Positions 39,686 to 49,313 of a stretch of DNA of 64,000 nt are shown piece by piece. Position numbers and translations under genes: made by a program. Position 1 is the stretch's first letter; the number at the start of each line of letters is the position of its first letter. This DNA comes from an uncultured bacterium. GTDB lineage: Bacteria > Planctomycetota > Phycisphaerae > UBA1845. A model generated the notes under the pieces. That model did not search any database. It had not been told where the DNA came from and saw only the letters and a list, made by a program, of their open reading frames with translations. The stretch covers positions 20,118 to 84,117 of the forward strand of contig CBDUXT010000006.1 in NCBI GenBank assembly GCA_965371245.1, in the 5' to 3' direction.

Positions 39686-39731
39686 AATGGGCTCGGCGCG
39701 GATGGCCCGAGCGGTTTCAGGCGATAACCTC

Positions 39732-40175
39732 ATGGTGCAAGCGAACTTACGAACAACGTTGGCCAAGACGGGCAAGGTCGAACAGGCGTGGTTCATCGTT
39801 GACGCAACGGACATGATCCTCGGTCGGCTGGCGACCAGGATCGCTACGGTGTTGATGGGCAAGCACAAGCCCTCCTACACGCCTCACGTGGACACCGGCG
39901 ACTTCGTCATCGTCACCAACGCCCACAAGATCCGCGTCACCGGACGCAAGAACGAGACGATGAGTTACCCGCGGTACTCCTATTACCCCGGCGGGTACAA
40001 GGAGACGCCCTACGAGACCGTGCTGGAACGCCATCCGGACCGAATTCTTCGGGAGTCCGTTCGGCGTATGCTGCCCAAGAGCGCCCTTGGCCGGCACATG
40101 CTCATGAAGCTCAAGCTGTATACATCCGACGAGCATCCGCACGCGGCGCAGCAACCCGTCCCGTTTGAGTTCTAA
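39732..40175 (+). CDS. rplM: 50S ribosomal protein L13
   Basis: WFIVDATDMILGRLATRIATVLMGKHKPSYTPHVDTGDFVIVTNA is canonical L13. Confidence 0.95.
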   Translation: MVQANLRTTLAKTGKVEQAWFIVDATDMILGRLATRIATVLMGKHKPSYTPHVDTGDFVIVTNAHKIRVTGRKNETMSYPRYSYYPGGYKETPYETVLERHPDRILRESVRRMLPKSALGRHMLMKLKLYTSDEHPHAAQQPVPFEF

Positions 40176-40204: not shown

Positions 40205-40696
40205 ATGACCGACGAGCCGACCCCCACCACCCCGGACGTAGTCAAACCGCCTTCCGACGGGGCGCCAACGCCCCCGCAAACCCCGAAGCCCAAAAAGTCG
40301 AAGGTCAACAACCCCTACATTTGGGGTACGGGGCGGCGAAAGGCCGCGGTTGCCCGCGTCCGGATTCGTCCCGGCGAGGGCAAGTTCCTCATCAACAAAC
40401 GCGAGATCGGCAAGTACTTCTGCCTGGAGAAGGATCGCGATTGGGCCACCACGCCGCTCCGCGTGACCGACACCGCCAAGACCTTCGACGTGTGGGTCAA
40501 CGTCGGCGGCGGCGGAATCACCGGCCAAGCGGGTGCCGTGCTGCTGGGGCTCGCCCGGGCACTCAGCAAGATCGATCCTGAGTACAACACCAAACTGCGC
40601 GAGCAACATCTTCTCAAGCGCGACCCGCGACGGGTCGAGCGCAAAAAGCCCGGCCAACCCGGCGCTCGCAAGAAGTTCCAGTTCTCGAAGCGTTAA
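40205..40696 (+). CDS. rpsI: 30S ribosomal protein S9 (with Pro/Thr-rich N-terminal extension)
   Basis: GTGRRKAAVARVRIRPGEGKFLIN ... KKPGQPGARKKFQFSKR is canonical S9. It is preceded by about 35 aa of PTPTTPDVVKPPSDGAPTPPQTPKPKK. Confidence 0.95.
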   Translation: MTDEPTPTTPDVVKPPSDGAPTPPQTPKPKKSKVNNPYIWGTGRRKAAVARVRIRPGEGKFLINKREIGKYFCLEKDRDWATTPLRVTDTAKTFDVWVNVGGGGITGQAGAVLLGLARALSKIDPEYNTKLREQHLLKRDPRRVERKKPGQPGARKKFQFSKR

Positions 40697-40733
40697 GAGT
40701 CCGGTTCATCCGGCACGGCGGCGAAACAACGAC

Positions 40734-40764
40734 GGCTCCCCTGTCTTGGGGAGCCGTTTTTTTT
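40734..40764 (+). terminator. Rho-independent terminator of rplM-rpsI
   Basis: GGCTCCCC-tgtctt-GGGGAGCC followed by GTTTTTTTT. Confidence 0.85.
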
Positions 40765-40900: not shown

Positions 40901-41344
40901 CTAGGCGTGCCCTGGTAAACGCCGCTTCATCAGTAGATCGACGTTCCCGTATTGAGCCCCTTCCAGCGCGTGAAGGTCGTGTTCGATGTCGATATTGGGA
41001 CCGAGCTTGCTCGTCCAGCTCCCGTCCGCGTTTTGCCGTGCGGCATGGGTCGGTTTGCCCTTCGGATCGACGAAAACGGCGACCTTCTCGTAGCCCGATT
41101 CCGGGGCATCCGAATCACACTCCTTGAATCCCTGTAGCGAGTACGCGGCTGCGTAAGCCTCGACCGTATAGGCGCGCGGCACCTCGGCGGGCCAATAGTA
41201 AAGATACTGGGCGTCCGGCCACCACCAGCACGTCATGTCATGCGCGGCCCAGGCGATGCAGTTGTATCGGTTGTCGCGTGGACTCGTGATCTTATAGTGC
41301 TTATCGCGAAGTCCCGGAAACGCTTGCTCCAGCCAATCCGTCAT
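40901..41344 (-). CDS. Uncharacterised 147-aa protein with conserved-looking Cys/His motifs (possible thiol hydrolase)
   Basis: Start at MTDWLEQAFPG, overlapping the upstream stop (ATGA at 41341-41344). Motifs RYNCIAWAAHD, KPTHAARQNADGSWTSKLG and DIEH. Trp/Tyr-rich, not a shadow-ORF composition. Confidence 0.7.
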   Translation of the reverse strand: MTDWLEQAFPGLRDKHYKITSPRDNRYNCIAWAAHDMTCWWWPDAQYLYYWPAEVPRAYTVEAYAAAYSLQGFKECDSDAPESGYEKVAVFVDPKGKPTHAARQNADGSWTSKLGPNIDIEHDLHALEGAQYGNVDLLMKRRLPGHA

Positions 41345-41805
41345 CCGTGGTACCCACGCCCCCGCCCCCAACGCAACCACGCCTCGGTCATGCGTTCAAC
41401 GCGACCCCGATCCTTTGCGGGGACCGGATCGCAGCCAGTGATGGCCTTGAGTGCCCAGAACCAATGATCCGGCGTTTCGCCCAGTTCCCGTAGTAGAAAC
41501 GGCAGTGCTTTGGACCCCATCCCGATGATCCGCTGGTAGGCCGGGTGCATGGCCATCTCTTCGACCGATGACGTCCATTGGGTGTCTCTGCGCCAAATCA
41601 CCACGAGTTCGGCGAACTCGTGCTCGACGCTGATCGCCTGTCGTGATGCCGGAGCGCGCCATTCCTGATGAAGTTCCTGAAAAATGCGTTGAAGCTCGAG
41701 CGCTTCCTCTCCCCCGCCAACGAAGCCGTCAACATCTTCCCCGATATGACTGCTCCCAAACCACCCCTGAAGCGGAAGGCTGGACGGACGGACAGCTAAC
41801 GTCAT
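41341..41805 (-). CDS. Uncharacterised 154-aa protein
   Basis: Start overlaps the upstream stop (ATGA at 41802-41805). C-terminal half MHPAYQRIIGMGSKALPFLLRELGETPDHWFWALKAITGCDPVP...AWLRWG looks helical. No family recognised. Confidence 0.7.
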   Translation of the reverse strand: MTLAVRPSSLPLQGWFGSSHIGEDVDGFVGGGEEALELQRIFQELHQEWRAPASRQAISVEHEFAELVVIWRRDTQWTSSVEEMAMHPAYQRIIGMGSKALPFLLRELGETPDHWFWALKAITGCDPVPAKDRGRVERMTEAWLRWGRGRGYHG

Positions 41806-42578
41806 CTGAACAACTCCTTCGTTCTTGGAGTGAGGCTATCGAAGAAGACCGTGTTCTTGACCGTTCGCAAGTCCTCGAATCTTCTCCATAGCGCTTCGTC
41901 CTTCGGATCGAGCTGCGCCGGCATGAAAGCATCGACGTCGAAGATCAGCGGGACTGTTGCGGCTGATTCTCCAAGATTGACGTTCTGAGTCAGATTCACG
42001 AAACAGGGCGGGTCATCGAACGGAATGTTAAGCCGAACAAAGAACCCTGCTAGCGTTTGCGGAAGCTTCGGCGACACCGCTGGGGCCGTCAGAACCCAAT
42101 CGCTCAACTTGGTCACCGGCGCAGGCAACTCGATGCGGTTGATGTAACGAACCGCGATCCGTTCGACCTGCCCCGGTTTCGCGATATCGACATAGGTACG
42201 CCATAAGTCTTGCGCTGCTTGCTTCAAAGCGTCCCAGGTGTCGTACGGCTTGAGTTGGCTGAAGGTGAACCCGTCGAGACGCGCCTGCACAACCTGGGTT
42301 TCGTCGGAGGACGCGAGGAGATAGCCGTCGGGTCCCTGAGATCCGGCATCCATAGCTGGGGGTCGGTCCGCCCGGAACGTGAACTGCCCTTGTAGCTTCC
42401 AGCGTTGGCGACACTTGGGAAATCGCTCGGACACGGCGTCGCGGAAGCCCGCGAGCGTTTCGAACGTCGTCGTCGATGGAAGCCTCACGCGAACGTCGAG
42501 CAGGGCTTCCGTGATCGGTGCGTTTGGAAAGTGTTCCCACTGGGTCTTCATCGGTTGCGCTCGCGACGCACCTTTCAT
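41802..42578 (-). CDS. TIGR04255-like uncharacterised protein
   Basis: Start chosen at MKGASRAQP (cat 42576-42578), preceded by GGAAGG. FPNAPITEALLDVRV...RIAVRYINRIELP...LRTVKNTVFFDSLT resembles my memory of the TIGR04255 family. Lies 35 nt downstream of the decarboxylase stop. Confidence 0.65.
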   Translation of the reverse strand: MKGASRAQPMKTQWEHFPNAPITEALLDVRVRLPSTTTFETLAGFRDAVSERFPKCRQRWKLQGQFTFRADRPPAMDAGSQGPDGYLLASSDETQVVQARLDGFTFSQLKPYDTWDALKQAAQDLWRTYVDIAKPGQVERIAVRYINRIELPAPVTKLSDWVLTAPAVSPKLPQTLAGFFVRLNIPFDDPPCFVNLTQNVNLGESAATVPLIFDVDAFMPAQLDPKDEALWRRFEDLRTVKNTVFFDSLTPRTKELFR

Positions 42579-47859: not shown

Positions 47860-47948
47860 AAGCTCGCGGAGGGCTGGCACCAACGGGACACGAGCTTCCT
47901 GTCGTGGCTATCGTTGCCAGAACGGGCAATCCACCGGATAATGCCGCG

Positions 47949-48587
47949 ATGACCAAGCCCGACGGAGAACACCCCGATGCGCGGCCCGGCGCTGTGCGAA
48001 ACTATTTGCTTGAGTGGGAACTCACCCCCGAGGAAATCAACGAAATCATCGCGGAAAACCCGCCGGTGTTGTCGATACTTTCCGGGTTCATCGCGGAGTA
48101 CAAGCTGCGGAAGCTATGGTTGCATGACGGACGGATTTCGGCGCTGTCCCGTCCCAGGTCGCACGACCGGAAGAGCAAGGGCGATTTCAAGTTCACCTAT
48201 CGGCGTCATTCCTTCACGCTTGAGGTGAAATCACTTGACGTCCCGAAGGTGCGAAAAGATGAGGGCGGGCTTCGCGGCACATTCCAGTGCAACGCCAGCG
48301 ACTCACGAGAAGTTCAGCTGCCCAATGGCGAACGCCTGAAAACGAATTGCCTCGTCGCCGGCGAATTCGACGTTGTGGGCGTGTCCCTCTTCGCGTTTGA
48401 GCGCCGATGGAGATTCGCTTTCGCGCGCAACTGCGACCTTCCGCGATCGACGTGGAGGAAGTACACCGAGTCGCAGAGAAAACACCTACTCAAGAGCGCG
48501 ATGCCCATCAGTTGGCCGCTGGAATCGCCGTATCGTGACGACTTATTTTCCGTCCTTGATTCGATTCTGCGGGAGGGCCGAAGTTGA
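47949..48587 (+). CDS. Putative type II restriction endonuclease (PD-(D/E)XK) of R-M system 2
   Basis: 212 aa from MTKPDGEH (an alternative GTG lies at 47904). D-X12-E-X-K in [19 protein letters not shown]. Its 3' end overlaps the convergent methyltransferase by 45 nt. Confidence 0.55.
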
Positions 48588-49313
48588 TCGCCTTCTTCGG
48601 GTCTTGACGAAGACAAGAAAATACGAGTGGTTCTTTCTCGCGTGAACCTGCCCTTTGGTTCTCGTCACCGCAGGTCTGTTTGGGCGCACGACTATGAACA
48701 GGTCCTTCGTGTACAACCCGAGCTTCTCGTACTGATTGATGATTTCGACGTGCGTGAGCCGCTGCGTGTTCGCACTGACTTCATCTTGGCACTTTACGAT
48801 GAGGATCCCCTCGGGGCGCAGCACTCGATAAGCCTCTTTCCCAGCTCGAAAGTAGAGGTCCAGAACGGCGTCGTGGTACTTGGGGCCGCCGGGCGTTTTC
48901 TCCCCATTTGAGTAGTACTCGCGAAAGGCCGCATGGGAACCCGCCCCGGCAAGGTGGGCTCTTGAACGACGAAAAAGTCCTTCCATATAGGGAGGGTCGA
49001 GTACCACGCAATGGAACGACCGCTTCTCATAAGGAAGCGCGCGGCAATCCACGCCGTCCTGTAAATCAGACGCAACCAGTTTGTAGTCGTTCTTAGGGAT
49101 GTTCCGCCAGAAAACACCCTTTCCGAACGTCACGTCAGCGACCTTGGCGCCCTTGGCGACATGAAGGTAAAGCATCTTCTCGAAAACATCGGCGTTGGTT
49201 GAGACATACGCGCTCAAGACCAAATCGGAAGTCGTAATCCCGTCCGGCGCTTTCCGTCGGCTTCGCGTGGGCGGGCCATCGACGTCAAAGAGTGTCGCCT
49301 GAACCCGCGTCAT
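48543..49313 (-). CDS. DNA methyltransferase (N6A/N4C amino-methyltransferase), R-M system 2
   Basis: 256 aa. AdoMet motif [12 protein letters not shown] precedes catalytic [10 protein letters not shown]. Confidence 0.8.

Follow-up and report, generated by a model that had tools for sequence, protein, structure and literature searches.

A three-gene cassette coding for TIGR04255, unclassified and DUF7689 proteins as a candidate toxin-antitoxin-type module

Three minus-strand genes of uncharacterised function, referred to here as A, B and C, follow one another with overlapping stop and start codons in a 64,000-nt stretch of DNA from an uncultured bacterium of the Planctomycetota (Phycisphaerae, UBA1845; assembly GCA_965371245.1, contig CBDUXT010000006.1, positions 20,118 to 84,117 of the forward strand). 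This whole stretch is called the window in the rest of the text. What does such a cassette do, and does it belong with the genes that surround it? An earlier, sequence-only reading of the window had proposed a translationally coupled unit of uncharacterised proteins, as a candidate undescribed defence or toxin-antitoxin (TA)-like system. The comparisons reported here reveal that B and C form a self-contained, horizontally mobile pair to which A is an optional addition, and we give about even chances to the proposal that the cassette is an undescribed, self-contained, horizontally transferred TA-type module in a three-part form.

The three open reading frames (ORFs), their coordinates, both ATGA overlaps and the sequence motifs that had been quoted for C were all recovered from the sequence:

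41802..42578, minus strand: gene A, 258 aa from ATG 42578; TIGR04255; optional first gene of the module
41341..41805, minus strand: gene B, 154 aa; without family; conserved C-terminal core of ~95 aa plus an N-terminal extension
41632..41805, minus strand: N-terminal extension of B (residues 1-58; ...VGGGEEALELQ...EWRAPASRQ); accompanies gene A
40901..41344, minus strand: gene C, 147 aa; DUF7689; predicted papain/NlpC-P60-like thiol enzyme
41258-41260 (Cys29), 41045-41047 (His100), 40988-40990 (Asp119) and 40979-40981 (His122), minus strand: candidate catalytic codons of C
41802..41805, minus strand: ATGA overlap of the A stop and the B start, read directly in the sequence
41341..41344, minus strand: ATGA overlap of the B stop and the C start, read directly in the sequence

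An alternative in-frame ATG at 42551 would shorten A to 249 aa, and both lengths are found among public gene calls.

Conservation and mobility of the cassette

A scan of one genome per species returned at least 593 loci with a relative of C, the best 80 of which were analysed. These 80 loci span at least 14 phyla, with hosts among the Planctomycetota, Cyanobacteria, Desulfobacterota, Myxococcota, Nitrospirota, Acidobacteriota, Armatimonadota, Pseudomonadota, Gemmatimonadota, Chlorobi, Actinomycetota, Chloroflexota, Latescibacteria and Binatia as well as a bacterium of the candidate phyla radiation (CPR). All 80 carry a homologue of B directly upstream of C. The pairing of the second and third proteins in unrelated phyla, which the sequence-only reading had put forward, is thereby strongly borne out, and the families co-occur far outside close relatives. 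A homologue of A was found by BLAST directly upstream of B in 39 of the 80 loci, and two loci beyond these (L061 and L074) code at the same place for a divergent protein that still scores above the TIGR04255 cut-off; A is therefore an optional component, present in about half of the B-C loci. The reverse search, starting from the subfamily of A in metagenomes, gave 61 loci with enough sequence, of which 59 had B-C immediately after A, and B was directly upstream of C in 59 of 59 metagenome loci. Some loci lacking A have a different protein of 200-240 aa directly upstream of B, at times overlapping it (L016 6730-7452, L054 6822-7523, L060 2084-2791, L058 6852-7517 and L079 693-1307). Those of L054 and L060 belong to one common family. 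Such proteins could be first components of another kind, or ones that have diverged strongly.

The coupling of the genes is conserved together with their order, which upholds the earlier description of the cassette as a translationally coupled unit. The stop of A and the start of B share the same 4 nt in 96 of 100 A-linked loci. An overlap of B and C was seen in 108 of 140 loci and a distance of no more than 30 nt in 30 others (138/140 together), 4 nt being the commonest class of B/C overlap (57 loci). The overlaps thus go beyond what chance would give. The divergences of the two proteins are correlated (r 0.60, Mantel p 0.001), with a mean pairwise identity of 0.49 for the core of B and 0.51 for C; the two genes evolve together, as one unit. 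A profile search for relatives of C gave 4,410 clusters at 50% identity with E ≤1e-3, and 3,203 with E ≤1e-10.

After clustering of all ORFs within 4 kb, no further family was found in more than 6 of the 80 loci, indicating that the decarboxylase and ribosomal genes that flank the cassette in the window are not conserved partners; the synteny with the decarboxylase that a core-genome origin would entail was not seen elsewhere among these loci. B-C pairs occur in tandem (three in L012, 7669-10826; two in L056, 3581-7190), several metagenome-assembled genomes (MAGs) have two separate loci (L008/L037, L022/L068, L045/L076, L059/L066 and L069/L078), and the pair is set among unrelated genes in the loci for which precomputed annotation exists. 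The tandem copies, double loci and unrelated neighbours point to a mobile, self-contained element with selfish behaviour, as do a GC3 (GC content at third codon positions) below that of flanking genes and the phage-borne and degenerate copies described below. A small ORF and a PIN-domain gene (VapBC-like) lie immediately downstream of B-C on two unrelated contigs (L083, 8583-9235; L084, 8653-9383), and on another contig (L082, 5038-6076) the B-C pair has, at a distance of 4 kb, a SocA_Panacea (PanA) gene accompanied by a small partner.

The module is also carried by phages. In IMG/VR, 31 viral contigs contain a relative of C, with B upstream in all 31 and A as well in 19. The A-B-C cassette directly follows the tape-measure gene (PhageMin_Tail) in L176 and L192 and the large terminase gene in L186. 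Since this position varies between phages, the phage copies behave as cargo rather than structural genes. In three other viral contigs (L197-L199) the C gene is split or truncated, these being degenerate copies. No relative of C was found in the GenBank phage collection, and the plasmid collection held a single, distant one, in Phocaeicola.

The placement beside tape-measure genes bears on a different explanation, namely that the cassette consists of remnants of phage tail-tip genes (lambda gpK-like NlpC/P60 proteins) or is part of the operon of the pyridoxal phosphate (PLP)-dependent decarboxylase. A phage 'tail assembly protein' is among the weak fold matches of C described below, and A starts 35-62 nt after the stop codon of the decarboxylase gene. 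We nevertheless regard this explanation as extremely improbable: the cassette of L186 follows a terminase instead, neither a phage family nor a decarboxylase recurs beside the module in the 80 genome loci, and the GC content at third codon positions (GC3) of the cassette differs from that of the decarboxylase gene. The phage copies were also considered as tail structural genes, a candidate role that we rejected because their position varies and the 80 genome loci share no adjacent phage family.

The proteins of the cassette

C matches the Pfam family DUF7689 (PF24738) over the entire profile (130.7 bits for a cut-off of 22.6, E 5.5e-38, positions 1-118 of 118). This family, like the NCBIfam family TIGR04255, is annotated as function unknown. 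The motifs RYNCIAWAAHD, KPTHAARQ...GSWTSKLG and DIEH are present in C, and an alignment of 139 locus-derived homologues revealed four nearly or fully invariant residues: Cys29 (138/138), His100 (135/136), Asp119 (136/136) and His122 (136/136). Asn28, Trp32, Trp51-Pro52 and Trp110-x-Ser-Lys are also conserved. In the AlphaFold2 model of C (pLDDT 92.8, pTM 0.87), from whose secondary structure the placement of these residues was read, helix 29-33 begins with Cys29, His100 is part of strand 98-104, and strand 119-122 contains Asp119 and, at its end, His122. C thus displays in the model an invariant candidate nucleophile Cys at a helix N-terminus, a His on a downstream strand and a third polar residue on the following strand, as do enzymes of clan CA, and the order and placement of the residues look like those of a canonical, non-permuted papain-like enzyme. 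Foldseek searches of the PDB returned AvrPphB, a Josephin-type deubiquitinase from Parachlamydia, NlpC/P60 endopeptidases, LytE and CwlO as best matches, all non-significant, and searches of the viral models of BFVD returned weak matches to NlpC/P60 proteins, Tse1, lysins and a tail assembly protein. By sequence or profile, none of A, B and C has a significant relative in the PDB. We read C as a divergent papain-like fold and a predicted thiol enzyme. The papain/NlpC-type assignment made by the sequence-only reading holds up in the essentially invariant residues and in their papain-like placement in the model, and the structural matches agree with it, although they are individually non-significant.

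Could C instead be a secreted effector, such as a peptidoglycan amidase of the polymorphic-toxin or type VI secretion system (T6SS) kind, with B as its immunity protein? Such a role would agree with the weak resemblance of its fold to NlpC/P60 endopeptidases, to Tse1 and to phage lysins, and with an exported lipoprotein relative in Phocaeicola (see below). However, window B and C are devoid of signal peptides and hydrophobic segments, and the enzyme would for this reason be cytoplasmic. C is also a standalone protein, nearly all of the top 150 representatives measuring 114-225 aa (mostly 140-160 aa) without trafficking domains; the partner gene lies upstream in every locus, not downstream, and no secretion-system genes recur nearby among the 80 loci. 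We consider a secreted effector very unlikely, and the likeness to polymorphic toxins suggested earlier was not sustained.

Two proteins belonging to separate 50%-identity clusters, P0385 (355 aa) and P0408 (225 aa and probably truncated), are in-frame fusions of DUF7689 with a dephospho-CoA kinase (CoaE) domain. These fusions may be a clue to CoA-linked chemistry, or may result from an accidental fusion with a downstream housekeeping gene.

B has no match in Pfam, NCBIfam, PADLOC or PHROGs. Alignment of the 349 homologues that we found revealed a variable N-terminus followed by a strongly conserved C-terminal core of ~95 residues, with the motifs HPAYQRIIGMG, an ALP-x-LLREL stretch and PDHWFWALKAITG-DPVP; judged by eye, this core may resemble HEAT-like helical hairpins. 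B and C are also found in single chains. P0412 (307 aa) contains the B core (62-152, E 3e-29) and then DUF7689 (172-296), an arrangement that follows the order of the two genes elsewhere. Conversely, the plasmid pBACSA03 of Phocaeicola salanitronis (NC_015166.1; L085:5220-6206, minus strand) codes for a 328-aa C-B fusion composed of a lipoprotein signal, DUF7689 (84.9 bits; hhalign 98%) and a B-like segment (hhalign 78%, E 1.8e-5), which is a predicted exported lipoprotein (MKKLFYSLMLCSFFVAC-SNEDD...). This small mobilizable plasmid of 6.3 kb also carries a YoeB-type TA system. The natural fusions support a physical partnership of B and C, and that only.

The TIGR04255 label given to A by the sequence-only reading was confirmed by a match of 139.7 bits (cut-off 30, E 1.4e-40, profile positions 2-251 of 252); A has no Pfam match. 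Its AlphaFold2 model (pLDDT 89.9) shows a duplicated beta-alpha-beta(n)-alpha unit, for which the TATA-binding protein (TBP) was the best Foldseek match in the PDB (E 7.9e-5, probability 1.0, TM only 0.26-0.41), followed by S-adenosylmethionine decarboxylase (AdoMetDC) and helix-grip proteins. A is therefore predicted to be of the TBP-like fold class, which is not evidence of family membership in TBP, AdoMetDC or helix-grip proteins. Conserved charged residues alternate on its strands (E24, D28, R100, D102, R140, R144, R148, E150, D214 and D216) and would line one face of the sheet.

Genes of the A family also head cassettes that lack B and C. On plasmid CP063527 of Vibrio parahaemolyticus (L087:158-2105), A is followed by a gene for a 179-aa protein and, overlapping the latter by 4 nt, by a gene for a Zeta_toxin/AAA_33 kinase. 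A Crinalium plasmid (L086:3992-5822) codes for A, a 180-aa protein and a 171-aa protein, and L089 for A and a 180-aa protein akin to that of Crinalium, its contig ending soon after this middle gene; faint HEAT-like matches were obtained with the L089 copy only and not with the Crinalium copy. L142 (1974-3623) and L161 (158-1810) code for A, a different 180-aa protein and a 120-aa protein. By eye, the latter had seemed HEPN-like, an assignment that we dropped as it has no support from Pfam, NCBIfam or the PDB. On a Thermus megaplasmid (L088:3989-5291), a gap of 118 nt separates A from the next gene, which codes for a 147-aa protein. The partners of A in these cassettes, including the middle and last proteins from Vibrio, Crinalium and Thermus, have no homology to B or C. 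By eye, the 147-aa Thermus protein has C-terminal motifs in common with the L142 and L161 middle proteins.

The presence of A goes along with the length of B. The median residue of window B at which tblastn matches begin is 30 for A-linked and 58 for A-less loci (Mann-Whitney p 1e-14), and the called B genes code for ~146-150 aa when linked to A, compared to 107-112 aa in four of five A-less loci and 140 aa in the fifth. A hidden Markov model (HMM) built from the first ~58 residues of B in A-linked loci recognises window B at 13.3 bits and none of 46 B ORFs from A-less loci, even when these were extended upstream. A segment homologous to the extension also begins the middle protein of L161, which is in other respects unrelated to B (BLASTP 36% over 59 aa, E 1e-9), and the HMM gives a weak match (E 0.04) to the middle protein of L142. 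Mapped on the similarity landscape of C, the nearest neighbour has the same A-status for 114 of 133 loci, so that A-status is largely, although not wholly, coherent with C similarity. These comparisons indicate that, in the subfamily of the window, the ~55-aa extension of B occurs only with A. The three-gene unit of the sequence-only reading is thus real as A-B-C, but A is optional in it and coupled to an N-terminal extension of B that had been missed.

Proposed function and setting in the window

Which function would account for such a module? A TA-type module is the best supported answer because of the linkage, coupling, mobility, multiple copies and phage carriage of the genes and of the parallel with the zeta-toxin cassette. 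The cassette has the genetic features of type II TA systems, its genes being small, co-oriented, overlapping or close, co-inherited, patchily distributed, multicopy and found on mobile elements. In the mechanism that we propose, C would be a cytoplasmic effector, presumably a toxin, using Cys29 together with His100 and His122/Asp119, with hydrolase, deamidase or acyl-transferase activity towards an intracellular target. B would be its dedicated partner, made in a fixed ratio through translational coupling, and its helical C-terminal core would bind C, most likely keeping it inactive and so neutralising its toxicity. A would work through the ~55-residue N-terminal extension of B and, by analogy with toxin-antitoxin-chaperone (TAC) systems, would stabilise, regulate or sense through this extension, such that loss or diversion of A would free C. 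The trigger may be phage infection, or be tied to plasmid or prophage maintenance. A bolder and frankly speculative proposal, which we put forward tentatively, is that TIGR04255 represents an unrecognised TBP-fold addiction or sensor class, docking on a transferable antitoxin N-terminal peptide and serving unrelated toxins, including DUF7689 as a new family of papain-like toxins that act inside the cell, and that A-B-C cassettes, in at least 14 phyla and in phages themselves, serve either abortive infection set off by phage or the maintenance of prophages and plasmids.

Several observations weigh against the TA-type reading or parts of it. The Foldseek values obtained for C are poor (E 0.035-0.3 in the PDB and at least 0.005 in BFVD, TM 0.3-0.52), and C has no match to Pfam NLPC_P60 or CHAP at E ≤1. 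The extension HMM does not recognise an extension in divergent phage-borne A-linked cassettes, and for this reason the claim about the extension is limited to the subfamily of the window. The core of B is as conserved as C, and no DNA-binding domain was found in B with Pfam or NCBIfam, both of which are untypical of a labile type II antitoxin; a single B homologue, P0197, is an exception in carrying HTH_17. Given this conservation and the natural fusions, a simple labile antitoxin may not be the right description of B, which could instead be an obligate partner. The fusions to CoaE and the exported Phocaeicola fusion fit a non-toxic enzyme as well as they fit a toxic role. Finally, no promoter-like site was found on the cassette strand in the window, which, together with the short gap to the decarboxylase gene, suggests that the cassette may share a transcript with the latter. 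The TA likeness proposed by the sequence-only reading thus gains from the other TIGR04255 cassettes, one of them with a zeta toxin, but is undercut by the conservation and fusions of B.

The main rival explanation is that B-C is a two-subunit non-toxic enzyme, with C as a catalytic thiol hydrolase or acyl-transferase, B as a scaffold, activator or adaptor, and A as an accessory; the module would then spread for a useful activity, for instance in CoA/thioester-linked metabolism or peptide processing, and not through addiction. Co-evolution of C with an equally conserved B core is what such an enzyme would show, and the single-chain B-C and C-B fusions, one of them an exported lipoprotein, the two DUF7689-dephospho-CoA kinase fusions and the lack of a PADLOC match are all in its favour. 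Yet no metabolic neighbour is conserved across the 80 analysed loci, and degenerate copies exist. Housekeeping enzymes are not usually found in tandem multicopy arrays or at cargo positions in phages, and a TIGR04255 gene also stands at the head of the cassette whose last gene codes for a zeta toxin. On balance, we find a non-toxic enzyme possible but rather doubtful.

A third explanation is a specialisation of the TA-type reading rather than a strict alternative to it, namely anti-phage abortive infection, in which A would sense a phage product, B would relay the signal and C would kill or arrest the cell. The architecture parallels that of TAC and CmdTAC, the cassette travels as cargo in (pro)phage contigs, and some copies are close to other TA modules (VapBC-like and PanA). 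Against it, A, B and C have no match in PADLOC or PHROGs (none at E ≤1 in PADLOC-DB v2), the loci examined have no consistent link to known defence genes, and the cassette is flanked by housekeeping genes in the window. We consider this specialisation, too, to be on the unlikely side. The defence association suggested earlier was not borne out, as there was neither a PADLOC match nor a defence-island signal in the loci examined.

In the window, the cassette lies between two sets of genes. The genes for an ABC-2 permease, SCO1, DUF420, a cupin, RplM and RpsI are found on one side, and those for the PLP-dependent decarboxylase (same strand), an amidase and a radical-SAM protein on the other. One further feature separates the cassette from the rpsI side:

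40731..40758, both strands: GC-rich hairpin, terminator-like, between the convergent rpsI and C genes

The T-run of this hairpin is strong on the plus strand and weak on the minus strand. This terminator-like hairpin, shared with rpsI, lies where a terminator had been placed next to the cassette, and it is likely the 3' end of the cassette transcript. The cassette has a GC content of 0.594 compared to 0.631 for the window (5.6th percentile among windows of the same size) and a GC3 of 0.66-0.72 compared to 0.78-0.82 for neighbouring genes. Its composition is modestly but genuinely atypical; the AT-richness that had been noted is real in GC and GC3, although of modest size. The restriction-modification (R-M) system said to lie in the same neighbourhood amounts to a lone N6_N4 DNA methylase ORF ~6 kb away (48543-49313, minus strand, 256 aa), which converges on and overlaps a 227-aa ORF (47904-48587, plus strand) that has no Pfam or NCBIfam match. 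The two may be a small R-M pair, but the arguments from this neighbourhood and from AT-richness are both weak. The RpsI ORF (40205-40696) has a Pro/Thr-rich N-terminal extension of ~35 residues, and the rplM ORF (39687-40175), as publicly called, reaches well beyond the conserved L13 core at its 5' end. In a collection of 15 billion proteins clustered at 90% identity, RpsI, the DUF420 protein and the decarboxylase each form a singleton, indicating that the source lineage is poorly sampled.

Comparison with known systems

If the TA-type reading is true, C would represent a new enzymatic toxin class, a papain-like cysteine enzyme, to which B would add a partner family without a database entry. 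TIGR04255, a 'sporadically distributed' orphan family, would receive a function as a modular third component, analogous to SecB and structurally unrelated to it. The family of C is large, with 4,410 clusters and at least 593 loci, and a function assigned to it would extend to the annotation of thousands of genes. We rate as new in such a tripartite TA-like module the effector, whose fold family is undescribed, the partner, which is unclassified, and the type of third component. To our knowledge, papain-like cysteine enzymes are not represented among the characterised toxins of type II TA systems; a literature search for papain-like TA toxins found nothing relevant, and another found no paper in the library searched that mentions DUF7689, PF24738 or TIGR04255.

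C resembles the families of clan CA (NlpC/P60, CHAP, YopT/AvrPphB C58 and Josephin-type) in its ordered Cys...His...His/Asp residues, in the predicted packing of a Cys at a helix N-terminus on an antiparallel sheet carrying His residues, and in its top, though non-significant, structural neighbours. Unlike members of these families, it has no sequence-profile match and is small, cytoplasmic and standalone. The order of an accessory gene, a gene in the antitoxin position and a gene in the toxin position is shared with omega-epsilon-zeta, paaR-paaA-parE and hipBST, and the likeness to omega-epsilon-zeta extends to the TIGR04255 cassette of Vibrio CP063527, which ends in a Zeta_toxin/AAA_33 kinase. 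However, A measures ~250 aa and belongs to no recognised DNA-binding family, whereas omega is a small ribbon-helix-helix repressor, and the terminal C is cysteine-hydrolase-like and not a kinase.

The third protein of TAC and CmdTAC, a SecB-like chaperone, is described as binding a transferable extension of the antitoxin, and phage proteins as being able to trigger release (PMC5105189, PMC11618068, bioRxiv 10.1101/2024.02.24.581848). Like the TAC systems (HigBA-SecB of Mycobacterium tuberculosis and CmdTAC), the cassette has three genes, here translationally coupled, and the middle or partner protein, here B, has an extra terminal extension only when the third protein is present. Also as in TAC, the third protein and the extension pair with unrelated modules (here B-C, the zeta-toxin pair and at least two other pairs). 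The cassette thus has, in analogous form, an extension that accompanies the third component exclusively and can be passed from one family to another. Unlike in TAC, A is the first gene and not the last, the extension is N-terminal and not C-terminal, and A is not SecB-like, having no SecB match in Pfam or NCBIfam, a TBP-like duplicated fold and a place in TIGR04255. By analogy, TAC would be the closest mechanistic precedent for the A-B-C cassette, the resemblance being one of function and not of membership.

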